This document shows, piece by piece, positions 34,633-62,950 of a DNA stretch of 64,000 nucleotides. Positions within the stretch are counted from its first letter, which is position 1, and each line of letters starts with the position of its first letter. A program made the position numbers and the translations under genes. Source of the stretch: a virus; the IMG/VR virus record IMGVR_UViG_3300005731_000180, positions 3,663-67,662 of that record, one strand, 5' to 3'. The notes under the pieces are model-generated. The model was not told where the DNA came from. It made no database searches and saw only the letters and a program-made list of their open reading frames with translations.

Positions 34633-35148
34633 CTATATTAATTCGTTACAATTTTTTGCTTTATCTAATTTATTTTGAAATATTTGTTTTAGTTGTCCAA
34701 CAGTTCTATCACCTATCAACCTTCTGTTATGCTGATATTCTTTTTGGAACTTGTCCTTAACTACAGTTTCATCACTAGTTGTTAAGAATCTATAACCACT
34801 TGGAATTCCAAAGAAATGTAAAATATACAGATTACGGTAAGTTACAGGTAGTCCTTTACGCTTTAAATAGTTGGAATGTTCTTTAGTTAGCAAGGCAGCT
34901 AACTTAGTGTTTAGCTTAGGTGAAAATACGTCACCAGAGAGCTTATATCGCCTTTTAAGAGCTTCTTCTGTAGGTCTGGTAACTTGGTATAACCCCTTAG
35001 CTTTAGTGGCTTTATTTACGGCTTTTGGATTCCAATTAGACTCGATTTTGGCAATCTTGCACATATAATCAGGCTCCACTCCAACTGAAGTGGAAACCTG
35101 TTGTACTACTGTTACTAGTGAAAATAGTGCTGTAAAAAGTATTGCCAT
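34633..35148 (-). CDS. lytic transglycosylase (SLT/lysozyme-like) with N-terminal hydrophobic anchor
   Basis: IAKIESNWNPKA, AKGLYQ, LY..HFFG. Confidence 0.85.
   Translation of the reverse strand: MAILFTALFSLVTVVQQVSTSVGVEPDYMCKIAKIESNWNPKAVNKATKAKGLYQVTRPTEEALKRRYKLSGDVFSPKLNTKLAALLTKEHSNYLKRKGLPVTYRNLYILHFFGIPSGYRFLTTSDETVVKDKFQKEYQHNRRLIGDRTVGQLKQIFQNKLDKAKNCNELI
34776..34796 (-). promoter_or_regulatory. candidate late promoter, internal to SLT gene
   Basis: + strand TAGTTGTTAA-N7-TAAC. Confidence 0.55.
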
Positions 35149-36677
35149 TATTTCTTGCTACCTACCATTTGGAGAAGCTTTCTCAGTCCGTCTAGTTCTG
35201 CCTTAGCATCTGCTCCATCTTTTAGCATTTCTTTGTTTCTGTCCTGCATCATAACAGTATTAACTGATTCTCCAGAGTTAATTCTATCTGGAAGTAAATC
35301 CCCTGAGTAAGAGTCACCTTCGATAATTCGTCCTTCTTCCATTTCTTCAGGACTTCTAAGGCCACGTAAAACTTCTAATAGTTCGTCTTGTGCATTATCG
35401 TTTACCGCAAGTTCTCCGTTGTCGATAGCTTCGTCTACTCTTCCACCATCTGCCATTCTCTCAGAACTTTCTATCATCTGCTCCTCGATACCACCATTCG
35501 CATACATATCACGTTCTTCGTGTGTCATTGGATGGATAAGGTCGTTAACGTCAGATTCAGCTTGTCCAGAAGCTCCTGCAAACTCACCAGGTTGGATACC
35601 TTCCATAACCTCTTCGTCTTTCATTTCCGACTTTTTAGTAAGCTCACTTAAAGCTTGTAGTGCTTGAATGAACTCCGCAGGTACTTCCTTATTATTATAC
35701 ATGTTCTCTGTTTCCTTGTCAATATCTTCTGCTAACCCACCGTTTTCGTATTTAACTCCACCATTATTCATATAGCTTGCACCTGCTGTTGCTGCTCCTA
35801 GAAGAAGTCCTCTAGTTCCTGCCGCTTCTGCTTGTGCTGCCTGAGCTTGTGACTGTGCCTGTTGTCCATAAGCTTGTGCTACATTTCCCATTGCACTTTG
35901 CATACCAGTAGCTTTTTGTAACTGATTCTGGTATTGCTGTTGGATTAATCCTTTATTAGCTGCTTGTTGTTGGTTTAACGTAGATGCTCTTTGATTTTCA
36001 ATAGCCTGTCTCTGAGCAAGGTTAGCTTGTTGGGCTTGTGCTCTTTGCATTGCGTTAAATTGGTTAATAGCATCTCTAGCTTTTGCTGCTGAACTTTGTT
36101 CTTGGAATTGCTGACCTCTGAAGGCTCCAGCTTGTTGTCCAAGTTGAGAAAGTGCTGCCCTTCTCGCTTGCGCTTGTTGGATTGCCAATCTGTCAGCTCC
36201 CTCTGCTGCTCTACTTGCAGAAGCTTGCGAACTTGCCAATCTAGCTGCTAATTCCTGACCTCCACCAGATACACCTCTTTGTGCCATGTCTGATAAGATG
36301 GATTGCTGTCTTGCTTTTTCTTCTGCTCCGACTTGTCTTTGCAATTGTCTCATAGCAGCTCTATCTTCCTCACTAAATCCCTTTTCTGAAAGTTCTTTAA
36401 GTTGAGTTAGAGCAGACCTTTGAGCTTCTTCCGACTGTGCATCAGGAGCAATATCCGCAAGTGATGTGTCACCTAGTTGTTCTGCTTGTTGCAGACCTAC
36501 TAATTGTGGGATTTCGAGAGCTAGTTTTTGTTTTTCAATATCAGGAATTTGGAGCTTGTCCAGTTCTTCCATAGCTCTCTTATACATCTGCATTTGAGAC
36601 GCTGCTGCTCCTGCTCCTGCATTTGGGTCTGCTGTCAGTCCTAGAGCTTGAGTTGCACCACTCACTAATTTACCCAT
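35148..36677 (-). CDS. putative pilot/ejection protein
   Basis: Gln/Ala-rich helical body; xxNGG/MADGG motifs; GD..P.RINSGE.V C-terminus. Confidence 0.6.
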   Translation of the reverse strand: MGKLVSGATQALGLTADPNAGAGAAASQMQMYKRAMEELDKLQIPDIEKQKLALEIPQLVGLQQAEQLGDTSLADIAPDAQSEEAQRSALTQLKELSEKGFSEEDRAAMRQLQRQVGAEEKARQQSILSDMAQRGVSGGGQELAARLASSQASASRAAEGADRLAIQQAQARRAALSQLGQQAGAFRGQQFQEQSSAAKARDAINQFNAMQRAQAQQANLAQRQAIENQRASTLNQQQAANKGLIQQQYQNQLQKATGMQSAMGNVAQAYGQQAQSQAQAAQAEAAGTRGLLLGAATAGASYMNNGGVKYENGGLAEDIDKETENMYNNKEVPAEFIQALQALSELTKKSEMKDEEVMEGIQPGEFAGASGQAESDVNDLIHPMTHEERDMYANGGIEEQMIESSERMADGGRVDEAIDNGELAVNDNAQDELLEVLRGLRSPEEMEEGRIIEGDSYSGDLLPDRINSGESVNTVMMQDRNKEMLKDGADAKAELDGLRKLLQMVGSKK

Positions 36678-36680
36678 TAT

Positions 36681-37016
36681 TTACTCCTTTAAGTCTTTAA
36701 TAAAATATGTTTGTTCGTCTGTTCCACTAATTATTTTATAACCGTTTGATTTAATAAATTGGACAGCTTCTTTATAGTTTAATGCGTTATTCGCTGCCGT
36801 ACACATTATCCCGATTTTTCCATTTAACCTTGCGATAGCTTCAATCTGTTTTCCAAATTGTGAACCTGCTTTAGTTCGTCTATAAGGTTTGGCGATAAAA
36901 AGGTCTACAATAAAAAGGTAATCTCCATCGAACTTGTAGCTGATAAATCCCTTATCATTCTCTATCGTAATAGCACCTTCTCTTTCTTCGACATATTGTG
37001 CGTAAAAGCTACTCAT
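36681..37016 (-). CDS. GNAT-fold acetyltransferase (virion module)
   Basis: FIVDLFI..PYRR..AGS, F..SNGYK. Confidence 0.7.
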   Translation of the reverse strand: MSSFYAQYVEEREGAITIENDKGFISYKFDGDYLFIVDLFIAKPYRRTKAGSQFGKQIEAIARLNGKIGIMCTAANNALNYKEAVQFIKSNGYKIISGTDEQTYFIKDLKE

Positions 37017-38635
37017 TACTTTTCCAATAACTTTCTAAGAAGTTGGGCTTTAGATTGCTTTACTGCTCCATTAGCTGCCTGTATAGGTGAAAGTACCTGA
37101 TTAGGATTGTACTTTGATTGGAGTCCTAAGTAATCCTTATATGTTCCGCTATCTTGAATTGCCGATAAAAGTCTAGACAAGTTATATCGTTGTTTATTTT
37201 CATCTAGACCTGTTGTAGTTATTGTGCTAATTCCTGAACTTCTACTTCCTATTCTACGTGTTTCTTGTGGATTATATGTTTGCTCTGTAACACCTAAGTT
37301 TGCTAGTAATCTTCTATCAGAATCCGATAATGCACCTTGAGAACCTTTTCTTATTACGTCCAAACCTTGCGTAAATAAATCCTGAGCTCCTTGTGATCCT
37401 AACTGCTTAAGTCCTACCCATCCACCTAAGTCTAATCCTAAATTCTCACCAGCTCTTTGATATCCTAAACCTGCCATACCTTGCTCGTATTCAGACTTTC
37501 TCTGTCCAATAATATCTTGTAGTGCTTTTAATCCTGTTGGGTCTTCAGCTCCAACTTGTGTCGGGTCTAAAATAATATCTTGCTCTCTACCTGCTAATCT
37601 GGCTAAAGCTTGCGATCTTGCTAAGTCTTCTGCTGTGGCCAATGAACTTGCAGTAGCTTGTCTTAAGTAAGTAGACGGATCAACTCCATATAATCTATCG
37701 TATCCAAGTTGGTCAATATTTTCTTGAGTAAGTTGTCCACTTTCAAAAGCTTGTTTAAGGTTATTAATTCCTTCAAGTCTTCCTTCAACTTGTCCTCTTA
37801 ATGCTTCTGTAGCCTGTTCTGCTCCAGATGTAAGTTGTTGACGGATATCTGCCGCACCTGCTGACAATTCTCCACGTTGAGCTAGAGCTTGCTTTCTGGC
37901 CTCTGCCAAAGCCTGTTGCTGTTGTTTAGCAGCATCTTGAGCTTGTGTTACAATTCTTTCTCCAGCTTGTCTGTCACCACTTAGAATAAGTTCATCTAGT
38001 GCCGACTGTCCTGCTGTATATTTTTGTCCTTGTCCAGCAAAAGCTTGTCTCAGAAGGTCAGATTTACGTCCTGTAGCCGCTTGCTGTGCAATGTTACCTA
38101 GCCTTTGAGCTTGTGCTTTGGCTTGCGTTAAATCCAATTCTGGAGTCTGTGCTTTCATTTGAGAAGCTTGTTGGAACTGCTGTATAGCTTGGTCTTCTAA
38201 TTGTTGACCTGCACCGATATTCTGCGCTTGCTGTAATGCACTTTGAGCTTGTTGAAATGCTCTCTGTTGCATATCACGTTGTTGATTTACTTTAGACATA
38301 AAGTCTGACTGTTGCTTCTGAATTTGCTGTCCAACTGCCTGAGCCTGACTTTGTGTTGCTTTTTCCACACCTTGGGAAATACTTTGAGGCTTGTTAGCCG
38401 CTACGTATTTACGTAAGTCAGCACCCATTCCAGAACCTTTTGTAGACTTTGGAGCAGGAGCTTGAGTTGGCGAACCAGAGGCACTTGCAGGAGCCTGTGA
38501 ACCGCCCATAGGAGCTTGCTGTCCTTGTTGTTGTGGCGCAGCTTGTCCTCCCATAGATTGGGCTTGAGAACTTGGGCCAAGAGTATTCATCCTAGCTAAT
38601 TCGTCATTATCGTTCTTAGTCTTGAAAAATGCCAT
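37016..38635 (-). CDS. putative internal virion protein
   Basis: Q/A-rich helical protein after a late motif. Confidence 0.55.
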   Translation of the reverse strand: MAFFKTKNDNDELARMNTLGPSSQAQSMGGQAAPQQQGQQAPMGGSQAPASASGSPTQAPAPKSTKGSGMGADLRKYVAANKPQSISQGVEKATQSQAQAVGQQIQKQQSDFMSKVNQQRDMQQRAFQQAQSALQQAQNIGAGQQLEDQAIQQFQQASQMKAQTPELDLTQAKAQAQRLGNIAQQAATGRKSDLLRQAFAGQGQKYTAGQSALDELILSGDRQAGERIVTQAQDAAKQQQQALAEARKQALAQRGELSAGAADIRQQLTSGAEQATEALRGQVEGRLEGINNLKQAFESGQLTQENIDQLGYDRLYGVDPSTYLRQATASSLATAEDLARSQALARLAGREQDIILDPTQVGAEDPTGLKALQDIIGQRKSEYEQGMAGLGYQRAGENLGLDLGGWVGLKQLGSQGAQDLFTQGLDVIRKGSQGALSDSDRRLLANLGVTEQTYNPQETRRIGSRSSGISTITTTGLDENKQRYNLSRLLSAIQDSGTYKDYLGLQSKYNPNQVLSPIQAANGAVKQSKAQLLRKLLEK

Positions 38636-38658
38636 GTTACCTCTTTATTTTATACTAA

Positions 38659-38679
38659 TAGTTGTTAAATTATCGTAAC
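38659..38679 (-). promoter_or_regulatory. candidate late promoter
   Basis: + strand TAGTTGTTAA-N7-TAAC, 24 nt upstream of ATG 38635. Confidence 0.7.
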
Positions 38680-38692
38680 CTATTGTTATTCT

Positions 38693-39115
38693 TTATGAAA
38701 ATTCCAACTTAAGGATGATTTGGTACTTGTTATTGGCCTGTAAACCTGCTACGTGCTTGATTTCGTATCCACCTGTTCCAAGTGAAGAAAAGGTTACAAA
38801 AGGAGCAGAAGTTGGATAAATAGCTGCATTTGTTAGGTTTAATGCAGAAACTACCTGTGAACCTATAGCCCCAACATTAGAACTGAACTGTGTCTTTGTC
38901 GTAGGAACTCCATTAGAGTTTACAGTAACTTCAAATTGGACTAACTTGGACTTCAGGTTAGTAAAATCCAAGTTACCGTTTACGACGTTGATTATCTGCT
39001 CGATGTGGTGATTAAATGAAGAGGCGATATATCCGATTACCTGACGTTGTTCGTCATTAAAGTTTCCTTCTTCCGTCAATCTTCTTAGGTTATCTAATTG
39101 TGACATTATCTCCAC
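38693..39115 (-). CDS. putative tail protein
   Basis: Follows nozzle gene; NGNLDF.N motif. Confidence 0.5.
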   Translation of the reverse strand: MEIMSQLDNLRRLTEEGNFNDEQRQVIGYIASSFNHHIEQIINVVNGNLDFTNLKSKLVQFEVTVNSNGVPTTKTQFSSNVGAIGSQVVSALNLTNAAIYPTSAPFVTFSSLGTGGYEIKHVAGLQANNKYQIILKLEFS

Positions 39116-42100
39116 CTTCTCTTCGAGATTGATCTAGGATTCATGGTAATACCAACAATCTTAAACTTCTCTCTAGCGTTTACGTGTTTGAATCTGATTC
39201 TCAAATATCCGCATTTCTGCTTATTTCTTGGAACAATTCTTCTGATAGGAGTTTCAGAACCTCTTCCTCCAAAGTTTGATGAACCAAAGCTACCGTTACC
39301 AAAGTCTCCAATATCTCTAGCTAGGAAGTCCGAAAACTCAAAGGCCTGTGAAATGTCGGAATTAAATCCAATTGTTCCAGAATAAAAGTTTGTCTGATCG
39401 AACATTAATGTTGCATCTTGAACTTGCTTAAGTAACTGCGGGTCTCCGAAATGCTGTGGTGCCCACTCAATATCTGTTTGGATACCTTCGTAGATTAAAA
39501 CAGTTCCTTGTAGGAAAGCAGAGTTTTTATTGACACTAACAGTATTTCCTGAAAAGGGTATATTTGTAACAATAGCTTCATAAGTGACAGTTTTAGTATA
39601 AGTCGTATATGATTTAATAGAAGTGTCACAACTCGGATCATTTAGCTCACCTATTAGCGTATTAAACTCTGTTAATAAAGTAGTAAAGTTACTTGAGTAC
39701 GAAGTAGCAGTTACCGTTCCTGATGAATCATCTGCAACAAGTTTTGTATTTAGATCGTTCATTTTGTTTGTAATATTGTCGCCAGGTGATGCTTCTAACG
39801 TCGAGAAGTAATCTGTATCATCCAAACCAGAATCAATATCCAATCTCTTTAAAAGAGAGTTAAAACGATTTAGAGTAACTGTCTGGGCTTGGTAAACAAC
39901 ATCTCCCACTGTTACATTACTCGCATTAGAGAGTGTTAATTCAAGGTCTCCAATTGCATTAGTCGGAAGTGTTAAGGCAAAATCCAAGTCAGCATAATCG
40001 CTTCTATCGTCGTCTTTTCTTTCTCGTCTAATTATATTATCTGCTCCATCTCCGATATACATTTTATCATCTGAAGTATTAACTAGTCCGCATGTTCCAC
40101 CTATTGTCCACCTTGTCCAAGAACGAGTGAAATAATTGTAACGGTACATTTGTGTTGCTACAGTATCTCCTGTTTCTGTAGGTAGTGCAATTAAGTAACT
40201 TCTATCCGACTCGTAAGCTATTGCGAAAGAAGTAAGTTTATAATCGTACCTTGGGTTAGTAACACCTAGAATCTTATCCTCAATATCCGTTGAAATAATA
40301 AATGGAGATGACTCTGTAATAGTCGCAATTCCTTGGGACGTTAGAGCGTAAATTTGGTTGTTCAAAATAACTGCCGTATCAGGAGCTAGTACTTGTACTG
40401 AAGATTCTACTAGTCGTGAATTGAACGGAGAAGACGTACCTGTTACTAGATAAATCCCATCTTCTTTCATAACGATTAGGTTATCTCGTAGTGCCAAAAT
40501 TCTCTGAATTGCCTTATCTTTAGGGCCAATGTCAATAAAGTTTACTAATGGAACTGCTTCTGGTTTTCCAAACTTAGAGTAATACAATCTGTTCCCTGCT
40601 ACTTCATTATCAGATTCCACATCTGCTAAAAACCAAGTACCTGTAGTACCTGCTCCTGTTACGTTTACTGGAATTGAGAAAGTGTTTGGATCAATTACCG
40701 TTACTGTATATTTTCCTAAAAGAGCAGGAGTAGAGTCTGTACCGTAAATAAATACTTCCTGCCCAGAAACAAGTCCATGAGTAGCTGATGTTATTACAGA
40801 TGGATTTGCTGCACTAATTCCTGTGATAGTGTTAGTCTGTGATAAAGTTGGATCAAACTCTGCGCCATTAGCGTCTAAGCTTCCTAAAAAGAAACTTCCA
40901 TCTGCTAGTTCTCTAGATTCCAGAGAAATAATACCAGGTAAATCATCCGGACTTGACAAGTAAGTAGCTCTAACTGGAGAACTCGTATCCTTGTTTATAA
41001 TCTTAACAAGTGATCTAGCAGTTTCATCAATTGCCTGTCCAACAGAAGCTAAACTTGAAAGAAGAACTTCATTTGAAGCTGAATCCTCTCCATCACCAGC
41101 CGTTGAAGGAGCAGCGAAAGTAAATCCTGTAGGTGTCGAACCGTCTACTGCGTTGTCAACATTTCCGTTCTTATTCCAAGTAACTGTTACTGTAGCAGTT
41201 GAAACTGAAGTCGAGAATTCTCCCGAAGCTAGTAAAGCTGCTGATAAAGCTGTAGCAACATCTCCTACTGTGTCGTTTGTGTTGATATCTACTCGTATCC
41301 CGACTCTTGCAGTTACTTCAGGATCAGATGCACCTGCACCAGTAGAAAACCAAACATAGTATTTTCTTTCATTTCTTGCTGTATTAATTAAAAAATATGT
41401 ACCGTCTAGTGAGTCCGAAACATCGGCAACAGTGGTAATATCTTGTACCTGTGTAGCTCCAACAAACGTGTACTCTCTAGAGGTATCTCCGTTACCTATT
41501 ACGATTCCAGAAGTTCCAGAAACGAAGTCATCTACCGATAATACTCTTAGTTGTAGTCTGTGGAAAGTAGATGTGTTTGCGTAGAACATGAAGTTCTTAA
41601 ATAGCTCAACATCTTTTGCTACAGGCGGTTTCTCATTGGCTTGTAAGATACCTTCTCCGTTTACAGGGTTTGTATATAAAAATGCACCTTGCTCTCTGAA
41701 TGACTCAGGAGTGGCATCACTTACAGATATCTCTTTTGCTGATAGTTCTGAAGTAGTTGGAAAATCTTCGAATAAGAAGTTGTGTTCATCACCTGGTTCG
41801 ATATCATCAAGTGTAAGGCCTTCTGGAGTTGTGACTACTCCTGTTCTGTAAACTTGGTAAAAGTAATCAGTTGAGTCTACTTCAGTTGGGATTGTAAAAG
41901 TAAGGTTAACATTAGCTGCTGTCCCTGTTACAATAGAACCTTGCTCTGTTACTGAGATAGTAAACCCTGTTCCGTTTACAGACGAGTCTGAAGCATCTGT
42001 GAGGTTTTCTCCTGCTTCTGTAGACGTTACTGTGATTACATTACTTGCCACTTCAACCGTGAAAGGTAAGTTAGATATAGCAGCAGCTACTAATATAGCA

Positions 42101-42891
42101 ACATCATCTGCTGTAGTAGCACCTGAAATGTCAACTTTTACTTTAGTCTTACCGAAAGTATCAGAATCAGTTGGCTCTGTTCCAGAACCTGTTTTATCCA
42201 TCCATAACATGTAATCAACAGTTGACGAACTAATAAAGAAATACGTTAAGTCAGTAATAGAAGCCGAGGCCACTGTAGTTATTGAAATAGTCTCAGATAA
42301 GTTAACATCTGACGTACTATTAGTGATTACTAATCTAGAACTTGGACTTCCTAGTATTATGTTATTGTTATTATCTCGCTTACCCCAAACAATCCTGTAA
42401 GCTACTTTTGAACTTGATGGAAGAAAACCTGCTGTCGTAAAGTCTAACTGACCTTCCAAGTCTAAAGCTTTAGGCCCTCCTGCTTGTTCAATAGACCCTG
42501 CTACAATCTGTGACGCAGAAGTAGCTGATATCTTTTTAATCCCTGAATTTGAGGTCATATAAAAGTTACCATTAGATTCTTTACCTTTAATTCTGGCAGT
42601 TCCAGAAGGCTCAGTAAGTGACTCTGTGAAAGACGTAAAAGTACCTGTAGAGTCGTCAAATTGTAAAGTAGACCCAAAGTGTCTTAGGATTCTATCTTTA
42701 TATACAAGTAACTGTTTAGCTCTATCAGTAGAACTTGGTAGTTCGTCTCCGTATTGGCTAAGTCCTCTTCTTGGCTCTGCTACATCTGGAGTATCAATAA
42801 CGATATTATCAGCCTTAGTTAGATAACCGTCATTGTTTGATAGCTCGTTGTCGAAGGTTTTTAGTCCTCGACATTTTAGAATAGTTCCCAT
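39106..42891 (-). CDS. tail nozzle / tubular protein B-like, with inserted repeat domains
   Basis: 1261 aa, beta-rich; NRLYYSK...PEAVP, RDNLIVMKEDGIY; ITGISAANPSVITSATHGL (FCCH-like) domain. Confidence 0.7.
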   Translation of the reverse strand: MGTILKCRGLKTFDNELSNNDGYLTKADNIVIDTPDVAEPRRGLSQYGDELPSSTDRAKQLLVYKDRILRHFGSTLQFDDSTGTFTSFTESLTEPSGTARIKGKESNGNFYMTSNSGIKKISATSASQIVAGSIEQAGGPKALDLEGQLDFTTAGFLPSSSKVAYRIVWGKRDNNNNIILGSPSSRLVITNSTSDVNLSETISITTVASASITDLTYFFISSSTVDYMLWMDKTGSGTEPTDSDTFGKTKVKVDISGATTADDVAILVAAAISNLPFTVEVASNVITVTSTEAGENLTDASDSSVNGTGFTISVTEQGSIVTGTAANVNLTFTIPTEVDSTDYFYQVYRTGVVTTPEGLTLDDIEPGDEHNFLFEDFPTTSELSAKEISVSDATPESFREQGAFLYTNPVNGEGILQANEKPPVAKDVELFKNFMFYANTSTFHRLQLRVLSVDDFVSGTSGIVIGNGDTSREYTFVGATQVQDITTVADVSDSLDGTYFLINTARNERKYYVWFSTGAGASDPEVTARVGIRVDINTNDTVGDVATALSAALLASGEFSTSVSTATVTVTWNKNGNVDNAVDGSTPTGFTFAAPSTAGDGEDSASNEVLLSSLASVGQAIDETARSLVKIINKDTSSPVRATYLSSPDDLPGIISLESRELADGSFFLGSLDANGAEFDPTLSQTNTITGISAANPSVITSATHGLVSGQEVFIYGTDSTPALLGKYTVTVIDPNTFSIPVNVTGAGTTGTWFLADVESDNEVAGNRLYYSKFGKPEAVPLVNFIDIGPKDKAIQRILALRDNLIVMKEDGIYLVTGTSSPFNSRLVESSVQVLAPDTAVILNNQIYALTSQGIATITESSPFIISTDIEDKILGVTNPRYDYKLTSFAIAYESDRSYLIALPTETGDTVATQMYRYNYFTRSWTRWTIGGTCGLVNTSDDKMYIGDGADNIIRRERKDDDRSDYADLDFALTLPTNAIGDLELTLSNASNVTVGDVVYQAQTVTLNRFNSLLKRLDIDSGLDDTDYFSTLEASPGDNITNKMNDLNTKLVADDSSGTVTATSYSSNFTTLLTEFNTLIGELNDPSCDTSIKSYTTYTKTVTYEAIVTNIPFSGNTVSVNKNSAFLQGTVLIYEGIQTDIEWAPQHFGDPQLLKQVQDATLMFDQTNFYSGTIGFNSDISQAFEFSDFLARDIGDFGNGSFGSSNFGGRGSETPIRRIVPRNKQKCGYLRIRFKHVNAREKFKIVGITMNPRSISKRRWR

Positions 42892-44228: not shown

Positions 44229-44277
44229 GTCTGATTCTCCTTATTTCGACTACTTACATTTTTCTTGACTGTATATA

Positions 44278-44298
44278 TAGTTGTTAAAATGGGATAAG
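44278..44298 (-). promoter_or_regulatory. candidate late promoter
   Basis: + strand TAGTTGTTAA-N7-TAAG. Confidence 0.7.
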
Positions 44299-44310
44299 TA
44301 CGTGGTATTA

Positions 44311-52008: not shown

Positions 52009-52045
52009 AGGCGGAATTCCTTTGTTTGTTGTGTATATACAGTTA

Positions 52046-52066
52046 TAGTTGTTAAAGTGGTGTAAG
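52046..52066 (-). promoter_or_regulatory. candidate late promoter
   Basis: + strand TAGTTGTTAA-N7-TAAG. Confidence 0.7.
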
Positions 52067-52098
52067 TAATTGGAATTATGGAAAGTGGGAAAGTACAC

Positions 52099-52127
52099 TT
52101 GATAAAAGTAAAAAACAGTGTTAAAAT
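52099..52127 (+). promoter_or_regulatory. sigma70-type promoter of GIY-YIG gene
   Basis: TTGATA-N17-TAAAAT with extended -10 TG. Confidence 0.65.
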
Positions 52128-52145: not shown

Positions 52146-53006
52146 ATGTATTATATCTATAAAATAACTAGTCCAAGTGGTAAAAATTACATAGGAATTA
52201 CTAAAAATCTAACAAGAAGAAAACGTGAACATACTATCAATGCCAATAAAAACACTGATAGACTCAACAGAAGGAAAATAGTAAAGGCTTATAAAAAGTA
52301 TGGTGCTGATGATATGTCTTTTGAGCATATATTTTGTGCTTTTAATCAGGAATGTGCTAAAGAAATCGAAATTGAACTCATAAAATATTATAACTGTTTT
52401 AATAAAGGGTATAATATGACAGAAGGTGGAGACAGTACTACAATCACTAGACAGTTTACTGAAAAAGAAGTAGACGAAATAAGAGACCTTCTTGAATTTT
52501 CTAACATGTCTCAGAATATGATAGCAAAACAATATAATACGACTAGAACTAGAATACATGCTATAAAATATAATAAAGAATATTGTGACCTAGGTAAAGC
52601 TAGAGTTATAAATCGACCTGTAAATACGCAAGTTAGAGGAAATAAAGTATCATTATCTAAACTGGACGATGATAAAGTAAGAGATATCTTAGTTAGGTAT
52701 GAACAAAAGCGTGAAAGAGTAAAGGATATTTGTAATTTATTCGGAATAACAAGACAAACACTATATTCTATTGTATTAAATAAAACTTGGAAACATGTAA
52801 AACGTGAATTTAAGATAACAAGAAGACATAGAGGTAATAGTAAATTTACAGAGAAACAGGTTAGAAAACTTTGGAAAATGAAAAAACTAGGATATAGTAT
52901 AAGAGAGATTGCCGATCACTATAATTTAAATTATACAACCCTTCATTCTATATTTAACGGTAAAAACTGGAAAGACTTGTATGAAGAGTATAACGAAAGT
53001 GAATAA
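52146..53006 (+). mobile_element. free-standing GIY-YIG homing endonuclease with three HTH repeats
   Basis: YYIYKIT...GKNYIGIT...R..EH, E...I, GYNMTEGG; antisense to late arm; AT-rich. Confidence 0.85.
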
Positions 53007-53033
53007 AAAAAGGAGAGGCATTAACCTCTCCTT
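53005..53033 (-). terminator. intrinsic terminator after major capsid gene
   Basis: AAGGAGAGG-6nt-CCTCTCCTT stem; A-run on + gives a U-tail on the - strand. Confidence 0.8.
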
Positions 53034-53054: not shown

Positions 53055-54296
53055 TTATGACTCAATGAAATTTAGAAGTGCAGTTCTTCCTGGCTTAGCA
53101 GTGAATAGAGCGATATCAGCGTAAGCTCTGAACTCGTATCCTGCTGTCTTCTCAAGAAGTCTTACCATCTTGTCATCAAGACCTGGTTGGTTGAAAGTAA
53201 CGTCTGATGAACCAATCTTTAGGAAGTCACCTGGTACCATCATGTATGCATAACCTTCTTTACAGAATATTGTAGATACAATCTTGATCTTACCATTTGG
53301 CCCAAAGAATGTGATGTTCTCAGTACCTTGCTCAAGTCCAGAAGACTTGTAAGAGCTATCGAATTCTCTCTTAGCAGCTAGGTCAGAAAGTAGGTTCTTC
53401 CAAGAAAGAGGGTTACAAAGTACGCAAACTTCTTCCTTCTTAAGTCCTTTTTCCATCATTCTAGCGATACCTTCTTCAATCTTATCGAAAGATAGTACGG
53501 CCTCTCCTCCTGAGAAGTTTGTACCAACATTTACAGTGTTCCCTCTGAAAAGAGAGTACTGAGATGCGTCGATTCCGAAAAGAGTTCCAGTTGTGTTAGA
53601 ACAGATTTTGTGAAGTCCAACTGCTTCTTGGTTGTAAGCACCTTTGTGGTAAATCACGTCAGTAGCTACTGTACCAGCAGGAAGTCCGTCAACTGTTACT
53701 TGTTTAGCACTCATGTCAACAGAAGAAACATTTGTTTCACCTCTTTTAACACCTGCTGCACTTCTAATCTCAATTGGCATATTCTCAGACCCAGCCCATA
53801 GACCTGCGGCCCATTCGTGATCTTCGATTTTGATAACATTAGAAGAAACTGACTCAACAATTCCGATTCCTGATTGACCGTACATGAAGATGATTTCTAG
53901 ACGAACCATGAAAGATTCGAACATATTTTCAACAATGTACTTTGTTTCTTGTACGAAAGCTGCTTCTTTTCCTGAAGCTGCTCTAGAAGCTGCGTCTACT
54001 GAAAGAACAGAGCTAAGGTGGATTGAACTACCTTTAACTTGTGCTTCGTCGTGTGCTGCTGCTACCGCAGAGTTTAGGTCGTAAGCTGCTCCACCTGTTC
54101 CTCCGTAAGAGAAACCAAATTCGTATCCAAGAGCTACTGGTTGGTTATAAAACTTTCCACCTCTTTTGCTAGACTTGATAAACTTTACCATGTTGTAAAG
54201 CTCAACTCCAGAAGGCTTTAGGTTTTCGATTTGTTCCGCATATACGTCTTTAAAATGTCCGTTTAGCGTCGATTCTGTATTAGCTGATGCTGCCAT
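53055..54296 (-). CDS. major capsid protein
   Basis: 413 aa, downstream of scaffold, followed by a terminator; LNGHFKDVY start, T..LFGID...Y..F motif. Confidence 0.8.
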   Translation of the reverse strand: MAASANTESTLNGHFKDVYAEQIENLKPSGVELYNMVKFIKSSKRGGKFYNQPVALGYEFGFSYGGTGGAAYDLNSAVAAAHDEAQVKGSSIHLSSVLSVDAASRAASGKEAAFVQETKYIVENMFESFMVRLEIIFMYGQSGIGIVESVSSNVIKIEDHEWAAGLWAGSENMPIEIRSAAGVKRGETNVSSVDMSAKQVTVDGLPAGTVATDVIYHKGAYNQEAVGLHKICSNTTGTLFGIDASQYSLFRGNTVNVGTNFSGGEAVLSFDKIEEGIARMMEKGLKKEEVCVLCNPLSWKNLLSDLAAKREFDSSYKSSGLEQGTENITFFGPNGKIKIVSTIFCKEGYAYMMVPGDFLKIGSSDVTFNQPGLDDKMVRLLEKTAGYEFRAYADIALFTAKPGRTALLNFIES

Positions 54297-54310: not shown

Positions 54311-54775
54311 TTATGCTTTGTAAACAACTTTAACTAAAAGTGTTGGCGACTCAGAAGCAAGGTTAAGTCCTGTTCCTGCAATATCAATTGCAACATTTCC
54401 ACCTGCTGTAAGCCAATCTGACCCTACTTTTGCTACAGTTAGAGAAGTAGCTAATGCTGTCTGCTCAGTAACTTGTACCTCAAGTACCTTTTCAAGTGCA
54501 CCTTCAGCAAGCTTTGATCCGTCAATGATGATTCCAAATTGAGAGTCACCTGTTGAGTTATCTACTGCTGTAGTGAAACTTCCTGATAAGTCTTCGATAG
54601 CATCTGCTTCTGAAACTTTACCTTCTGTTCTTAGTTTAAGAGCTGATGGAATGTCTGAAGAGTGTACCTTGTCGGCTGGTGTTGCGTTAGCCGTGATTGT
54701 ACATTCAACAATAAGCTCTCTAGTTCTGTCTAGAGCGTCAGCTACTAGATTGTCTGCTGTGTTTGCTATTGCCAT
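54311..54775 (-). CDS. capsid-associated (decoration/minor) protein
   Basis: Between scaffold and MCP; SD aggag. Confidence 0.5.
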   Translation of the reverse strand: MAIANTADNLVADALDRTRELIVECTITANATPADKVHSSDIPSALKLRTEGKVSEADAIEDLSGSFTTAVDNSTGDSQFGIIIDGSKLAEGALEKVLEVQVTEQTALATSLTVAKVGSDWLTAGGNVAIDIAGTGLNLASESPTLLVKVVYKA

Positions 54776-54965
54776 TTTTAATCTCCTGTAAAAATGATGT
54801 AGTTAATAATAAAAAATCACGGTGTCACTTTCTTTCTCTTAGTAAGGTATTCTTAAAGTCCTGTTAAGGATATTCGAGAAGCCAGCTAAAATAATCAATC
54901 GCTAACCATATAAAGAGGTTAAGCTTTTACCCTTAACCCCTTGATTTTCTCACCTAATTCAAAAG

Positions 54966-54986
54966 TAGTTGTTAAAACTTTGTAAC
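54966..54986 (-). promoter_or_regulatory. candidate late promoter for the capsid operon
   Basis: + strand TAGTTGTTAA-N7-TAAC. Confidence 0.7.
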
Positions 54987-55000
54987 TACTTGTTATTACA

Positions 55001-56119
55001 TTATGCGTTGTACTGTTCTTGTAATTTCTTGAAGAAATCTGCCGAACTTACTGATCTTTCTTTCTCTTTAGGCTGTGAAGAAGATTGCTTCGATTTAGAG
55101 CTATCTTTGTTCAGACTACTCACGTTTACTGGTGGAGTGATCTTCTTTTTCTGAGCCTCTTTCTTGGCCTTACGAGAAATGCTGTACTTTTCCAAGAAAT
55201 CTTCAGGTGCTTCTTTGATGAATGATCCAATCTCTTCAAAATATTCCTGCTCCACAAGTGGAAGAACATCTGCGATTGTTACATCTGGAAATAGTGGTTC
55301 ACCTGTAATTTCGTCTACTTGACTTTCTGCCCAATCAAGAGCGTCTGCTGCACGAGAGATGAACTTAGGATTCTTTGGAATAGTTACGTTACTCATTTTC
55401 CAAGCATTATCAATCTCTTCCTGAAGCTGTGCCATTTGTTGCTCTTGCATCCTAGCTTGCTCAATAGCAGTTTTCTCGTCTTCGATTTTCTTAAGCTTTT
55501 CACGATACTCTTCCAATTCCTTTTGGATTTTCTCTCTTTCTCTCTGTTCAGGTGTCTTCTGCTCGTCTTCGATTTTCTTCATAATGTGACCAGCAGCGAT
55601 ATCATCAACATTTACTCCAAGTTCAGCTAATGCACTAATAGGATCGTTAATTAGTTCCTCTAAAGCCTTTTGATAAGTTTGTTGAAGTTCTTTAGCCTCT
55701 TTGGCTTTCTCTGTAAATGCCATAGACTTTTGAAGTTCTCTTTTGATAGCTTCTTCATCCGAAAGGTCAATCTCTCTTTCAACAGTCTTACCATTTACTT
55801 TAAGCTCAAACTTTCGCACCATGCTTTTCAGTTCTTCAGTTGAAGCTCCTGCGGCTGCTGCTGCTTCTAGTTCATCTTGAAGTTCTTCTTCTGTTTCTGC
55901 TTCCGAATTAGCGACGTGTTCAGAGTCATCTTCTGAACCATCTTCTTCTTCTCCAGAAAGCTCTGCTTCTGCATCTTCTTCCGAACCATCTTCTGTTGAA
56001 TCTAATTCCGAGTCTGTTTCTAATTCTGCTCCTGAATCATCTGCTGAAGCTTCTGGTGCTGAACCACCTTCTCCTTCAAATTCTTCCATGAGCATGTGTT
56101 GGTACCTGTCTTTAAACAT
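55001..56119 (-). CDS. capsid scaffolding protein
   Basis: Acidic N-terminus, ELKVNGKTVE, coiled coils; start MFKDRY after SD aaggag. Confidence 0.75.
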   Translation of the reverse strand: MFKDRYQHMLMEEFEGEGGSAPEASADDSGAELETDSELDSTEDGSEEDAEAELSGEEEDGSEDDSEHVANSEAETEEELQDELEAAAAAGASTEELKSMVRKFELKVNGKTVEREIDLSDEEAIKRELQKSMAFTEKAKEAKELQQTYQKALEELINDPISALAELGVNVDDIAAGHIMKKIEDEQKTPEQREREKIQKELEEYREKLKKIEDEKTAIEQARMQEQQMAQLQEEIDNAWKMSNVTIPKNPKFISRAADALDWAESQVDEITGEPLFPDVTIADVLPLVEQEYFEEIGSFIKEAPEDFLEKYSISRKAKKEAQKKKITPPVNVSSLNKDSSKSKQSSSQPKEKERSVSSADFFKKLQEQYNA

Positions 56120-56203
56120 CTTCGTTCTCCTTTTGTCGTCTGTTACGATAGACAATAAGTGGCCAATCCATACGGGTATGACCTGAGTTATTATAAATTA
56201 CCG

Positions 56204-58291
56204 CTATCCTTGCGGTGTTAAAGGTTGTCCTGTTGCTGGATCAACTGGAGGAGTAGGCATACTTACTCCTGCTGCTGCTGCGTTTTGTACTGCTTGCGGA
56301 TTGTATCCCATCTCTGCTTGTTGTGCTACTTCTGATGCTGGTAAAGGCCCACCTGGTGCTGGAGGTGGAGGAGTAGACGGAACAGGAGGTTGTTTCGCAA
56401 GTGTTTTACTATCTAAATATTTCTGTGCTTCTGTAGCTTGTAAGTCTTTGTGTTCTTGGATGTGAGCTAGAACCCTTGTAACGAGTTCATTATCAAATCT
56501 CAAAGAAGAATCAGACAATACAGAAATGTGTTCTGCAATGTGCATATCGTGATCGTCGATAGCAATAGCAATAACGTCATCCCCTGCTACTAGTGCTTCG
56601 TTTTCTGATTTAATTAACTGCATCTTTTTAGTAGGTGCTTCTGTCATAGTTTCTAAATTCCCTGAGTTCAGTACTGAGAAGTATTGTTCAGGAGTTGTAA
56701 TAAGTCCCATCTGAATTAAGTTCTGAGCCATTTCAGAACGTCCAGCAGTTGTATTTGATAGTGGGTTTCCAACATCAACGATAACTCTCTGAACTCTATC
56801 TAAACTGTCTCTACTAAATTCACGTACTCTAGCTGCGTTAGATTTACCAACAATCTCAGCAATTCTAGGAGCTTCTGCATAGTCTTGTAAGATTTCCACA
56901 ATTGCCGAACCTACGTCTTCCATAAGCTGAACGTACTCTTGTTGGAAACCTGAAATATATTGTAAAGCTTGTGATTGGATTAGTGCAAGTGCATTACCTG
57001 AACGTAAGTTCTGCTCAGGATTACCTCTTGTTACTGCGTTAATCCCTGAAATAGTTTCCATTGCTTTTTCTACAATTCCAAGATAATTAAATGCTTCTGC
57101 TGGAGATCGTGTAAGGTTAAGTGCTTCAGGTCTTCCTCCTGTTGGCCCTTCCATTGGTGTGTAATCAATGAAATTAAGTCCACCAGCTATCTCTGAGACT
57201 TTTATATTACTTCCATCTGGTACAAGTACGTTTTGAACTCCAAAAGCTGTTAGATTCGTCAATACAGTACTGTACATCGAGTTTGCAGCTTGTTGTAGAG
57301 GCATTAAATCCCATAATGGAGTATATCCTCTAGATGTTCCAATATAGTTAGATGGTGCAATACGGAAAACAGGTAATCTTCTATATGGCATAGGCCCATC
57401 TTCTAGGAAGATTTCGTCGTTGATATAAAGTAGATATCTTCCATTTGGAGTTGATTCTGTTCTTTTGTGGAATAATTCGTAAACCGCAATATCGTCTGTT
57501 TCGTCAATTTTTGATAGTGAGATTTTTCCTCTCTTCTCAGACTTATCTCTAGTTTCCACTTCAAGAATCTTGTCCGCAAGTTCAGGATATTTTGATGCGA
57601 GGTTGTGACGGTTTACAAAAGTTCGGATTACAACCCACTCTTGGTCATCCCAACAGTCTTTACCGAAATCAAACATAACATTGAGAGGGTCTAGAGATTT
57701 GAACTCCAAATCCCCCTCATAAACAGGTATTCTTTCTAACTTGTTACCTATTTTGTCGATTAAATTACCTTCTTCGTCTTTTAGTTCGTTTCCATCATCG
57801 TCGTAAAATGGCTCAGGCTCAACAAAATCATAAGCTTTACCTTTTGTTGCGTTCCATTCTACCTTTAGGTATCCTGAAGCTAATACGATACCTTTTTCTG
57901 CTGTATCTTTTAACTTCTTCTCAACCTTCTTCTGACGCATATAGTATTCTAATAAGTCGTTTGCCAAATCCACCTGTACTTGCGACTTGTGGTCTGTGTT
58001 TACCGCTTTAGCCTGAAAAGCTGGCCTATTAGAAGTTACCATTGTAAGAATATGTCTAGCAATGTTGTGATAGTGGTTTACTGCAATATTAACTAGTTCT
58101 CCAGATTCCCCACCGTATGAGATTCCATGATCTTCTTTGTAGTAAATTCCATGGTAATAGTCCCATGAACGCTTCACTTTCTCTAAATAAGCATCACTAA
58201 CCATACCTTTGAACCATTCATTACCTTTGGCTTGTAGATATTCGATGGCTTCTTTAGCTTCATCATTGGCAAAATATACGTCATTACTCAT
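56204..58291 (-). CDS. portal protein
   Basis: 695 aa after TerL; P22-like features (LMPLQQ..N, METISGIN...RG), Pro-rich tail. Confidence 0.85.
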   Translation of the reverse strand: MSNDVYFANDEAKEAIEYLQAKGNEWFKGMVSDAYLEKVKRSWDYYHGIYYKEDHGISYGGESGELVNIAVNHYHNIARHILTMVTSNRPAFQAKAVNTDHKSQVQVDLANDLLEYYMRQKKVEKKLKDTAEKGIVLASGYLKVEWNATKGKAYDFVEPEPFYDDDGNELKDEEGNLIDKIGNKLERIPVYEGDLEFKSLDPLNVMFDFGKDCWDDQEWVVIRTFVNRHNLASKYPELADKILEVETRDKSEKRGKISLSKIDETDDIAVYELFHKRTESTPNGRYLLYINDEIFLEDGPMPYRRLPVFRIAPSNYIGTSRGYTPLWDLMPLQQAANSMYSTVLTNLTAFGVQNVLVPDGSNIKVSEIAGGLNFIDYTPMEGPTGGRPEALNLTRSPAEAFNYLGIVEKAMETISGINAVTRGNPEQNLRSGNALALIQSQALQYISGFQQEYVQLMEDVGSAIVEILQDYAEAPRIAEIVGKSNAARVREFSRDSLDRVQRVIVDVGNPLSNTTAGRSEMAQNLIQMGLITTPEQYFSVLNSGNLETMTEAPTKKMQLIKSENEALVAGDDVIAIAIDDHDMHIAEHISVLSDSSLRFDNELVTRVLAHIQEHKDLQATEAQKYLDSKTLAKQPPVPSTPPPPAPGGPLPASEVAQQAEMGYNPQAVQNAAAAGVSMPTPPVDPATGQPLTPQG

Positions 58292-58322
58292 ATCTTATTT
58301 CCTTATATTATGTGCTTAAGTA

Positions 58323-58343
58323 TAGTTGTTAATTTAGTATAAG
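58323..58343 (-). promoter_or_regulatory. candidate late promoter
   Basis: + strand TAGTTGTTAA-N7-TAAG, 32 nt upstream of portal ATG. Confidence 0.7.
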
Positions 58344-58352
58344 TTATTGAGA

Positions 58353-59870
58353 TTATTTCCTTCTTGTTGGAAATCCCATACGTCTAGCTAACTTGCTCCT
58401 GTCAGTCTCGAAAGCTCCATCAGGGTAAATCACTCGATCACCAACTGGCATACCGTAACCAGGTGGGAATGGATTGTGATGTTCATTTATATTTCTTACC
58501 AAGTAGACCAAAGCATCAACTAAATCGCCGTGATGCGTCTTGTATCCGTTTGGGTTTCCTTTTTTGACTTTTGTTTTGGCAAATTCATTCTTAATTTTAC
58601 CGTCTCTAGCTGTTTTCCATTTAGTAGTTTCTAGTTGGAAAATAAGCTGCTTACATTTAGGATTAATCTTGATGGAACCTTCACGTAACATTCTACAAAT
58701 CTTATCAACTACCGATTGTTTATCATGCTTTTTTGTGGCTTTAAAATTAAGTCCATACTCAGTATTAAGGTCGTTAATTAAAATCTTGTTGTTGTTATCC
58801 ATTATCCTTCTGTAAGGTTCTATCTTCTGTCCAAAACTATTAGTCCAATTTAACTTCTCTTTTCTTTTGATAGTATCAGAAATTTCCTTAGTGGTGATAC
58901 TTTCACTTTCATGCTCCCCACCAAGCGTAGCTTCATCCTCTATAACAAGTTCTTTTCTGTGATAATCCCAATAAGCAAATAACATACCAGTTAAATCGGT
59001 AGCAGCAGGGTCTCCTGATGTATATGCATCAAAAAAGTCGGGTCTTTTGTAGTCCTCTGTTACCACGTCATTCTTAACGTCATCATTAAACGTATGGATT
59101 ACCATGTCACTTCTATCTACAGCAAACTCGCACAAATACTCACACTTAAACTTAGGGCCAGAGAAATCTCCATATCTTTTACGTAATCTTTTCTCAAGCT
59201 TCGGACTCCAAAATGGCGACTCGAATACCGTAAATTTAATTAGCGTTCCTTCCTGCATTTTTGGAATAATGTATTCTGTGTGGAATAAGTGAGCAGGGTC
59301 TTTGTAGTTCGGTGTTGATGCTAGTACGATATCACCATCAGTGGTATCTGTTGTAGGAGAGAGAACTGAGTTAACAACATAGTCTAACTCGTCTACGAAT
59401 CCAGCTTCATCAACAATACATAAGTGAGCATACCCACCTCTAAGTGCATCTGCGTTCTGATTATTTACTGCTGCAATTTGAATTTCTGATCCATTTGGAA
59501 ATACTAGCTTACCTTCTGCTTGTTTCCATTCTGGTCGCAAGTTTTCAGGCATAGTTTCCTGAATAATTGGAATATTTTTTGTAATAATTTCGGCAACCTG
59601 TTTCTTTGTTGGACAGGCATACTTTACAACTGCTCTAGGTGTTCTTAGACAAACTTCATAGGCCCAACATGTCAATACGAAAGACTTACCAAAACGTCTT
59701 GAACAGAGAATTGTAGCAATATCACCTTCTCCCTTCTTGACTAGCTCAATAAGTGTCTCTTTAACTTTATGTTGATTACCTTTTAAGAGAAACCTTAAAT
59801 CCCCTTTTTCCCAGAACTTCTTTATCAGTTGTTCTTCTGTGAATTTAGGTTGAAGTTTTCTAGTTGTCAT
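58353..59870 (-). CDS. terL: terminase large subunit
   Basis: SRRFGKS, LRG, CIVDEAG, ASTP, EYLCEF, nuclease GDPA...HGDLVDALVY. Confidence 0.92.
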   Translation of the reverse strand: MTTRKLQPKFTEEQLIKKFWEKGDLRFLLKGNQHKVKETLIELVKKGEGDIATILCSRRFGKSFVLTCWAYEVCLRTPRAVVKYACPTKKQVAEIITKNIPIIQETMPENLRPEWKQAEGKLVFPNGSEIQIAAVNNQNADALRGGYAHLCIVDEAGFVDELDYVVNSVLSPTTDTTDGDIVLASTPNYKDPAHLFHTEYIIPKMQEGTLIKFTVFESPFWSPKLEKRLRKRYGDFSGPKFKCEYLCEFAVDRSDMVIHTFNDDVKNDVVTEDYKRPDFFDAYTSGDPAATDLTGMLFAYWDYHRKELVIEDEATLGGEHESESITTKEISDTIKRKEKLNWTNSFGQKIEPYRRIMDNNNKILINDLNTEYGLNFKATKKHDKQSVVDKICRMLREGSIKINPKCKQLIFQLETTKWKTARDGKIKNEFAKTKVKKGNPNGYKTHHGDLVDALVYLVRNINEHHNPFPPGYGMPVGDRVIYPDGAFETDRSKLARRMGFPTRRK

Positions 59871-60241
59871 TTATTTTCCTTACCACCTTGAAGTAGTTTC
59901 CATTGCTTTAGTAACTCATCTTCAGATAGTTCCTTACCTTTAGCTTGCTTCTTAGACCTCTTAATAGTTCCACCTCGAATGTCCATTAAAGCTTTGGTAA
60001 GTATCTTGTAAACGTCAGCTTCTTCTTTGGTAAACGTACACTGCTCTGATATTTCTCGTAACCTTTCCAATTGTTGCATGGCAATAACCTCTGCATCTGG
60101 AATGTCTTCAATATCCGACTCTTCGATACCAAAATCATCTAACGTAACTTTAAGCTTCATGTTGCGTTTTTTGAGTTCTCGAACCTCTTCATTGAGATTG
60201 GCCAACTCTGCCAACAGTTCAGCTTCTTTAATTTGATCCAT
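59867..60241 (-). CDS. putative terminase small subunit
   Basis: Overlaps TerL start; helical; ELSEDELL C-terminus; mostly positional. Confidence 0.45.
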   Translation of the reverse strand: MDQIKEAELLAELANLNEEVRELKKRNMKLKVTLDDFGIEESDIEDIPDAEVIAMQQLERLREISEQCTFTKEEADVYKILTKALMDIRGGTIKRSKKQAKGKELSEDELLKQWKLLQGGKENK

Positions 60242-60992: not shown

Positions 60993-61019
60993 AACATCCT
61001 TCCTTGAATTACGTACATA

Positions 61020-61041
61020 TAGTTTGTTAATTACTAATAAG
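61020..61041 (-). promoter_or_regulatory. candidate late promoter (variant)
   Basis: + strand TAGTTTGTTAA-N7-TAAG; heads the terminase operon. Confidence 0.6.
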
Positions 61042-61084
61042 TATTTGTTTTTATTATTTTTTATTGGTGTATAAGGGTTACTTG

Positions 61085-61992: not shown

Positions 61993-62065
61993 AAAGTTGT
62001 CCAACTGAAGAACTACTAATTGGAATAATCGTATTACTTATTTTGTATTTGATAAAAGGATAGAA

Positions 62066-62474: not shown

Positions 62475-62852
62475 TCACTCATCTGTCACATCAACCTGAC
62501 TCGGTGACATTCTTCGCTCTTTTGCCAATTTAGAGTTGTTTCTCCCACCTCGACTTCTCTGCTCCGTAGTCGGCACTCTTTGGTGCGGCCTTATTTCAGT
62601 CTTCAGCTCCACTCCGAGGTCTTTCAGCTTGTCCCTGATGTTGCGATACAACACGGCTTTGTTGGTAATCGACGAATTTTCCAACTCATAGACCACTCTT
62701 CGCTGGTTTACGTTTACGATCTTGAACGACTTAATCTCAGTCCTTTCGTCCTTAACTACGTAATAATACGTCTTGTATCTTGTAGAATAAAGTCGGATTG
62801 ATTTGTCAGTTCCATCTTTCTGCTTTGTGTATTTTATTCGTGTCGTGGACAT
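62475..62852 (-). CDS. basic hypothetical protein
   Basis: SD aaggag; preceded by a late-motif core. Confidence 0.6.
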   Translation of the reverse strand: MSTTRIKYTKQKDGTDKSIRLYSTRYKTYYYVVKDERTEIKSFKIVNVNQRRVVYELENSSITNKAVLYRNIRDKLKDLGVELKTEIRPHQRVPTTEQRSRGGRNNSKLAKERRMSPSQVDVTDE

Positions 62853-62877
62853 ATTTACTCTCCTTGTAATATTTTCC

Positions 62878-62906
62878 TTGACTGTAGTTCAACTATCTGT
62901 TAAAAT
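62878..62906 (+). promoter_or_regulatory. sigma70-type promoter
   Basis: TTGACT-N17-TAAAAT with extended -10 TG. Confidence 0.7.
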
Positions 62907-62929
62907 CTAACTGTAGTAACTTGTATATA

Positions 62930-62950
62930 TAGTTGTTAAAATTGGACAAA
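62930..62950 (-). promoter_or_regulatory. candidate late promoter (core perfect, upstream box degenerate)
   Basis: + strand TAGTTGTTAA-N7-CAAA. Confidence 0.55.

Follow-up and report, generated by a model that had tools for sequence, protein, structure and literature searches.

Introduction

Late promoters define the switch of a phage to particle production. In the promoters of T7, T3 and SP6, the block before TATA sets polymerase specificity. T4 late promoters (TATAAATA) use gp55, gp33 and the gp45 clamp, and phiEco32 gp36 and SPO1 gp28 and gp33/34 are phage factors of the sigma-70 family. This report concerns eight sites in an uncultured virus contig, IMG/VR record IMGVR_UViG_3300005731_000180, of which bases 3663-67662 (64,000 nt, hereafter the window) were analyzed. 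The sites share a short core in a single orientation and stand ahead of the virion genes. Judged by their sequence and its context, they are very probably promoters. The broader statement that they are late promoters, that they belong to a family shared with other phages and that they are read by host RNA polymerase redirected by a phage protein has, taken as a whole, about an even chance of being right.

In sequence layout the sites resemble T7, T3 and SP6 promoters in forming a contiguous element of ~20 bp that ends at the presumed start and consists of an A/T-rich upstream edge, an 8-nt variable block, TATA and a purine. They also resemble them in the presence of one copy per late gene block and in their short leaders. 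They differ from T7 promoters at positions -7 to -12, in having A/T tracts far upstream and in belonging to phage genomes without a T7-type polymerase match (0/10). Like T4 late promoters, they are compact and A/T-rich, have no -35 box and lie just before late genes. The system proposed here would further resemble that of T4 in pairing the core enzyme of the host with a small phage protein missed by sigma profiles, as gp55 is in T4. Genes for rIIA/rIIB, endonuclease VII and RNA ligase are also common to T4 and relatives of the window. Unlike T4 late promoters, they have no TATAAATA box near -10 and no gp55-family match in the four genomes searched; the consensus is TTAACAACTATA or variants of it. 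Promoters for the phage sigma factors of phiEco32 and SPO1 are similar in placing a phage-specific consensus before middle or late genes and, as proposed here, in being read by host core. However, those factors carry recognizable sigma-70 domains, and the corresponding profile, PF04542, was matched in 0/10 genomes here.

The core motif is strand-specific and confined to the late arm

Matches to PHROG families reveal two opposed gene arms in the window. The + strand arm (1-30873) carries genes for Erf, helicase, primase, family-A DNA polymerase, endonuclease VII, exonuclease, ClpP, RNA ligase, dCMP deaminase and dUTPase. The minus-strand arm carries those for the large terminase, portal, major capsid, a fibre-like protein and a transglycosylase. 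The exact core TAGTTGTTAA occurs seven times in the window, on the + strand only, at positions 34776, 38659, 44278, 52046, 54966, 58323 and 62930, against an expectation of 0.37. The highest count in 100 shuffles was three, and 0/100 gave seven. When one mismatch was permitted, only three extra sites appeared, giving 10 sites against 11.4 expected; the motif therefore lacks a fringe of imperfect copies. Its minus-strand reading is TTAACAACTA. A variant that is one base longer, TAGTTTGTTAA (minus-strand form TTAACAAACTA), lies at 61020-61030. No further copy of either form was found in the whole 67,662-base record.

In the window the core is accompanied by upstream boxes. The tetramer [CG]TTA lies at -11 to -8, exactly 7 nt upstream, in 7/8 sites, the exception being 62930 with TTTG; TTA-N7-TTAACAA occurs seven times on the minus strand and not at all on the plus strand. 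A third box, kAATwmC, occupies -23 to -17, 5 nt beyond [CG]TTA, with A at -21 in 8/8 sites and C at -17 in 7/8. The upstream element of the window subclade thus spans 16 nt from -23 to -8 (kAATwmC-AAnTr-sTTA).

A position-weight matrix was trained on relatives only and then applied to the window. The seven exact sites came out on top, with 14.6-25.7 bits. The next match, at 10.9 bits, was in the shuffle range and overlapped a + strand sigma-70 -10 box. Since no other match rose above noise, the early arm contains no motif site. That arm has seven near-consensus TTGACA-17-TATAAT promoters, every one of them on the + strand (shuffle mean 0.76, maximum 3).

An initial annotation of this DNA had reported the seven copies on one strand at these positions, the longer variant at 61020, and TAAC or TAAG (the [CG]TTA box in + strand letters) at exactly 7 nt in seven of the eight sites, all of which is borne out. 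It had also placed seven of the eight sites between genes, at the head of terminase, portal, capsid, fibre, tail and ejection units, and had noticed none in an early arm that uses TTGACA/TATAAT promoters. Only 34776 proved to lie inside a gene, since 52046 and 61020 fall within open reading frames (ORFs) only under far-upstream GTG or TTG starts. The unit labels are broadly right by PHROG matches, and the matrix and the sigma-70 promoters agree with the contrast between the arms.

The motif is conserved in uncultured relatives and varies by clade

No cultured relative of the window was found by megablast of the phage collection or by a single-protein locus search, and tblastn with the portal returned two distant records only from the phage collection. 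The portal has at least 1494 metagenomic homologues, mostly ~50% identical. A profile of portal homologues led to 319 viral-contig stretches, of which 80 were kept as loci. The exact 10-mer is present in 52/80 portal loci, with 142 copies on the portal strand versus three on the other. In 55 distinct regions upstream of the portal gene, a motif variant lies within 120 nt of that gene in 47 and none is present in eight. A separate scan of viral contigs with a 14-base pattern gave at least 118 stretches, with one match each among those listed; this is the chance level, and the scan was set aside.

The logo of 102 distinct sites consists of an A/T-rich stretch (aaaT), TTAACAACTA and then T-A-(T/G)-a-T-a. 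The family-wide signal thus extends downstream, as TTAACAACTA-TA-(T/G). The sTTA-N7 box does not appear in this logo, but it is present in a single 78%-identical relative with a differing spacer (...AATCT..CTTA-N7-TTAACAACTA), so it is real yet specific to the window subclade. The bipartite architecture put forward in the initial annotation therefore stands for the window and this relative, and its [CG]TTA-N7 half is no part of the family-wide signal.

Eleven genomes were compared, namely the window record (G000) and ten near-complete relatives (G001-G010). Three of these relatives carry terminal repeats and have a completeness rating of 100%. In 11/11 genomes the motif, in its exact or a variant form, is the commonest 10-mer that is both dispersed and strand-specific. 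This top 10-mer is TTAACAACTA(TA) in G000, G001, G002, G004 and G005, TAACAACTAG in G003, TTTAACAAATATA in G008 and G009, TAACAAATAAT in G010 and A[AG]CACCCTTATA in G006 and G007. Relatives that bear variant forms (TAACAACTAG, TTAACAAATATA, TAACAAATAAT and A[AG]CACCCTTATA) have portals ~50% identical. The clade-differing 8-nt block takes the forms TTAACAAC, TTAACAAA and AACACCCT, and three motif classes track the phage clades.

The initial annotation had named equal frequency in coding or early regions and in both orientations as evidence against its reading. This was not observed. When the 11 genomes were pooled, 99 sites had the orientation of the virion genes and five were reversed, three of these being 8-mer matches within G006 genes. 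The sole reversed site of G001 has a gene of its own 26 nt downstream, so the motif moves together with its gene. A Shine-Dalgarno (SD) sequence and the start codon of an ORF no shorter than 45 aa lie within 120 nt downstream of 58/99 sites, compared with 2504/22000 random positions (11%). For 47 of these 58 sites the distance to the start is 13-37 nt. Terminators made of a hairpin and a T run stand immediately upstream of the motif in several relatives.

The predicted start point is close to the core

In relatives the gap between core and ATG can be as short as 13-18 nt, with the SD sequence inside it. Transcription would therefore begin within a few bases of the core 3' end, most likely 1-7 nt past ...CTA. 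A conserved purine lies 3 nt past ...CTA in several clades and 7 nt past it in others. At the capsid-operon site, stable hairpins begin 1-7 nt past the core in 4/11 genomes (z <= -4), while the window leader pairs from +12 (z -2.7) and five genomes show no hairpin. If the hairpins are 5'-terminal stabilizers, they too would place the start close to the core end.

Reading TTAACA as a sigma-70 -35 box was considered and rejected. With the -10 box at 16-18 nt, the start would fall ~35 nt on. The gaps of 13-18 nt, and of only 23 nt at window site 38659, would then put the start inside many genes.

The leader of the capsid operon (54776-54965, minus strand, in the window) is, among G000-G009, 178-209 nt long in seven genomes and 114-129 nt in three. 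No Rfam family matched it. Its hairpin could be a 5' stabilizer or part of a regulatory leader.

Phased A/T tracts lie upstream of the sites

The 193 distinct sites examined are preceded by A/T tracts at about -3, -12.5, -23.5, -34 and -43.5, a phase of ~10.5 bp that continues to -45. Spectral power at 10-11 bp was 23.3, whereas 300 controls at random positions averaged 0.9 and peaked at 4.6, so that none was as high (0/300); because the sites are related, this contrast should not be read as a strict probability. Bacterial promoters at which the alpha subunits of RNA polymerase touch the DNA typically have phased A tracts upstream. Such tracts are not known to have a role with single-subunit polymerases.

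A host polymerase redirected by a phage protein is the favoured reader

The late-promoter reading is well supported by comparison, as the motif is conserved across the family, is strictly oriented, lies before SD sequences and start codons and differs between clades. This pattern is hard to reconcile with an RNA-level or packaging signal. In the proposed mechanism the eight sites would act as the late promoters of the phage, and the promoter family would be common to many uncultured phages that resemble podoviruses and have genomes of 70-85 kb. Its signal of ~20 bp would comprise an A/T-rich run, the clade-differing 8-nt block, TATA and usually a purine. The host multisubunit RNA polymerase would first transcribe the early arm from consensus sigma-70 promoters. 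A phage protein would then redirect it by recognizing the block and TATA, a role like that of gp55 in T4, and the products of two early genes, p129 (29617-30006) and p281 (30028-30873), are candidates for this protein. The phased A tracts, the lack of a polymerase gene, the intrinsic terminators and the use of sigma-70 promoters together favour host polymerase plus a phage factor, which we hold with moderate confidence. The phage-encoded specificity factor suggested by the initial annotation fares well in one respect, since specificity determined by the phage is a reasonable inference from the clade variants in sequence. It fares less well in another, as no sigma or polymerase gene was found and the helix-turn-helix (HTH) genes of the window are not conserved.

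Several observations weigh against this proposal. The profile for sigma-70 region 2 (PF04542) was matched in 0/10 genomes (G000-G003, G005-G010), and in 11/14 bacterial genomes used as control. Because T4 gp55 itself has no sigma Pfam match, and so is invisible to that search, the PHROG families of gp55 (phrog_234 and phrog_12791) were searched as well; they were matched in 0/4 genomes (G000, G002, G006 and G008), with a positive T4 control. When p281 and p129 were compared with gp55 by hhalign, the probability was <1%, and Foldseek with two p281-family models gave nothing at E <=0.001 for the fold. Both proteins are put forward as readers or co-factors by elimination. Promoters of single-subunit polymerases have just such a layout, in which a conserved block abuts the start and ends in TATA and a purine. 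The window record, an IMG/VR virus contig, is ~80% complete. The compared sites come partly from related contigs and are not independent, identical sequences having been counted once. Finally, the bins of the relatives carry conflicting host labels (Saccharibacteria, Flavobacteriaceae, Synechococcus, Bdellovibrionales and others).

The layout could mean what it means in T7, in which case the sites would serve an RNA polymerase of the phage itself, so divergent that it escapes recognition. Seventeen annotated promoter start points from the T7 record were aligned at TATA. The T7 consensus TAATACGACTCACTATA|GGGAGA and that of the eight G002 sites, ttTTTAACAACTATA|GTA, are identical from -6 to -1 (ACTATA), and G follows in 8/8 G002 sites. 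The initial annotation had seen no match to T7 promoters. This is right for the rest of the sequence (-7 to -12), but ACTATA(G) equals T7 -6 to +1 and the layout is T7-like. The clade changes fall in the block equivalent to the specificity region of T7, T3 and SP6, and the leaders are very short, as at several annotated T7 promoters that lie 11-13 nt before a start codon. However, the profile for T7-type RNA polymerase (PF00940), which detected T7 gene 1 at E 1e-109, was matched in 0/10 genomes (G000-G008, G010), and no polymerase- or sigma-labelled PHROG was matched by any of the 82 window ORFs or the 43 early ORFs of G002. Universal early-strand proteins of unassigned role are only 111-281 aa long, too small for any known polymerase. 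The far-upstream phased A/T tracts also speak against a single-subunit enzyme. A late protein of 1261 aa was considered as a virion polymerase and rejected, on weak grounds, as it looks structural, with variable inserted domains and no conserved polymerase-like acidic motifs. A divergent phage polymerase appears unlikely on this evidence.

Sigma appropriation, exemplified by T4 MotA/AsiA, offers another route to the same sites. Host sigma-70 would read TATAnn as a -10 element, and a phage activator on the 8-nt block would replace -35 recognition. The bases past the block often make good -10 hexamers (TATAGT in G002; TATAAT, TATATT and TAATAT elsewhere), the phage plainly uses host sigma-70 promoters, and the upstream A/T phasing fits this reading too. 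Yet the sixth position of the hexamer is not a conserved T (A 56, C 8, G 18 and T 20 of 102), and a start ~7 nt past the hexamer would cut off the SD sequence where the core-ATG gap is 13-18 nt. Among potential activators, the window HTH proteins are not conserved in relatives. Sigma appropriation is thus decidedly unlikely. A strand-specific nick site, of the kind known from T5-like and phiKMV-like phages, would suit the strict strand bias and the handful of copies per genome, but this and a processing or antitermination site in long late RNAs are very improbable given that the motif is tied to gene starts, follows terminators, inverts with its gene and is absent from the early arm, and that phased upstream A/T tracts would be senseless for an RNA signal.

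In sequence, the motif is not a sigma-70, sigma-54 or T4 late promoter, as the initial annotation had stated. In the full-text library searched, the papers listed for the motif strings all concern, judged by title and abstract, unrelated primers or siRNAs, and no description of the motif was found. The finding is ordinary in kind, phage-specific late promoters being well known. What is unusual is its breadth, a T7-like grammar without a polymerase gene and the lack of a recognizable reader. A bolder and tentative proposal, which we consider doubtful, is that the reader represents a new class of promoter-specificity protein, perhaps the p281/p129 pair, which reprograms host core or forms part of a new polymerase and serves a T7-style grammar in >300 portal contigs.

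The consensus allows transcription units to be annotated in hundreds of uncultured phage genomes. Its clade-specific versions, at least four, form a natural specificity series like that of T7, T3 and SP6. If a small protein does retarget host polymerase to a 12-nt signal, it would provide a new orthogonal transcription part and a new route of host takeover.

Two small universal early genes are candidate readers

The proteomes of the 11 genomes were clustered by BLASTP and iterated profiles. Early-strand families present in all 11 genomes are an exonuclease, a helicase, an HNH nuclease (28534-28917), p129 and p281. The rest of the replication module is freely swapped, some relatives having a family-B polymerase and some a ribonucleotide reductase. 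Since every other universal early-strand gene has a known role, p129 and p281 are proposed as the candidates, and the search for the reader is narrowed to these two small genes. Trees of 11 protein families were all roughly congruent and therefore did not single out a reader that co-varies with the motif.

The p281 gene (30028..30873, + strand; 11/11 genomes) is the last gene of the early arm, with a near-consensus sigma-70 promoter ahead of it at 29993-30021. Its family has 998 representatives at 50% identity in a library of 1.8 billion proteins, and no consistent Pfam family was found across 98 members. Two models of family members are all-helical and confident (predicted local distance difference test scores of 90 and 88.5). 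The best match in a profile search of the PDB was not below E 0.24. VIA-align gave a Z of 8.8 on the coiled-coil insert only; for a compact p281 homologue the best Z was 3.8, and a few chains of sigma domain 2 scored 2.8-2.9, no better than noise. The p129 gene (29617..30006, + strand) was found in 11/11 genomes by iterated profiles and belongs to neither a Pfam nor a PHROG family. Of its 19 detectable homologues one carries PF03288, and a profile search of the PDB gave no match.

Other early proteins were considered as readers and set aside. The universal 127-aa gene at 28534-28917 is the HNH nuclease, and an early protein of 617-935 aa in relatives is a ribonucleotide reductase. The HTH proteins of the window at 20380-20880 and 20889-21272, after ClpP, have HTH_7 and HTH_23 matches, a weak Sigma70_r4 match (E 0.0086) and Atlas scores <0.9. 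Neither has a BLASTP homologue (1e-5) in five relatives, which rules both out as readers of the family-wide core. A role for them at the upstream box peculiar to the window is speculative. PHROG labels for gp33 or a clamp were absent from the 82 window ORFs, among which no search aimed at either was made.

Predicted transcription units of the window

The predicted late promoters, all on the minus strand, are described here from the terminase end of the arm. Late promoter 1 (62924..62962; core TTAACAACTA at 62930-62939) has no sTTA box and the best matrix score, 25.7 bits. Its leader of 77 nt runs to a 125-aa gene (62475-62852, minus strand). This gene belongs to a small family (RIRY...LKR...LGV) found on either strand in 10/11 genomes. 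Late promoter 2 (61014..61053; core TTAACAAACTA at 61020-61030, CTTA 7 nt upstream) precedes, by 27 nt, small ORFs beginning at ATG 60992, followed by a putative small terminase (59867-60241) and the large terminase (58353-59870, minus strand). Near-consensus sigma-70 promoters on the + strand (61085, 61945 and 62878) and small + strand ORFs lie among these first late units, so that the late arm opens with the two transcription classes intermingled.

Late promoter 3 (58317..58355; core 58323-58332) stands 31 nt ahead of the portal gene (56204-58291), which is followed by a 384-aa gene (55001-56155, minus strand). Late promoter 4 (54960..54998; core 54966-54975) has a 190-nt leader with a hairpin and serves a 154-aa gene (54311-54775) and the major capsid gene (53055-54296, minus strand). 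An intrinsic terminator with a 10-bp stem and a T run (53010..53033, minus strand) closes the capsid unit. A gene for a homing endonuclease of the GIY-YIG/HNH type (52146-53006) occupies the + strand between this terminator and late promoter 5, with a sigma-70-like site at 52099-52127.

Late promoter 5 (52040..52078; core 52046-52055) stands 37 nt ahead of ATG 52008, and its block ends with a fibre-like 1008-aa gene (48315-51341) and genes beyond (minus strand). Late promoter 6 (44272..44310; core 44278-44287) is 49 nt ahead of ATG 44228 and heads genes of 111, 329, 1261 and 140 aa, which are conserved virion genes (minus strand). The 1261-aa virion protein (39106-42891, minus strand) has 197 residues that are invariant across six genomes and a variable copy number of an inserted repeat domain (Y-F-x-I/L...K-Y-x-V/I-W-F), reaching up to 1622 aa in relatives.

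Late promoter 7 (38653..38691; core 38659-38668) lies 23 nt ahead of ATG 38635, and its unit consists of 539-aa, 111-aa, 509-aa and transglycosylase-like genes (minus strand). A perfect TTGACA-17-TATAAT occurs at 35722 on the minus strand, within the 509-aa gene and upstream of the transglycosylase-like gene. This sigma-70 site may be an early or host-read entry to the distal late genes. Late promoter 8 (34770..34808; core at 34776) has the lowest matrix score, 14.6 bits, and lies within the transglycosylase-like ORF (34633-35148). It is followed after 151 nt by ATG 34624 and by genes of 466, 654 and 119 aa (minus strand).

Rfam and tRNA scans of the window gave no matches. Outside the window, the G000 record opens (bases 1-70) within seven copies of a short, GGTCAGCAGCA-like tandem repeat and closes with a C run, which suggests that the record ends are assembly breaks. 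Among relatives, inteins with Hom_end and LAGLIDADG domains interrupt the portal in some cases (portal homologues P0004, P0100 and P0113), and one relative has an intein in its ribonucleotide reductase (L210:16496-19300).

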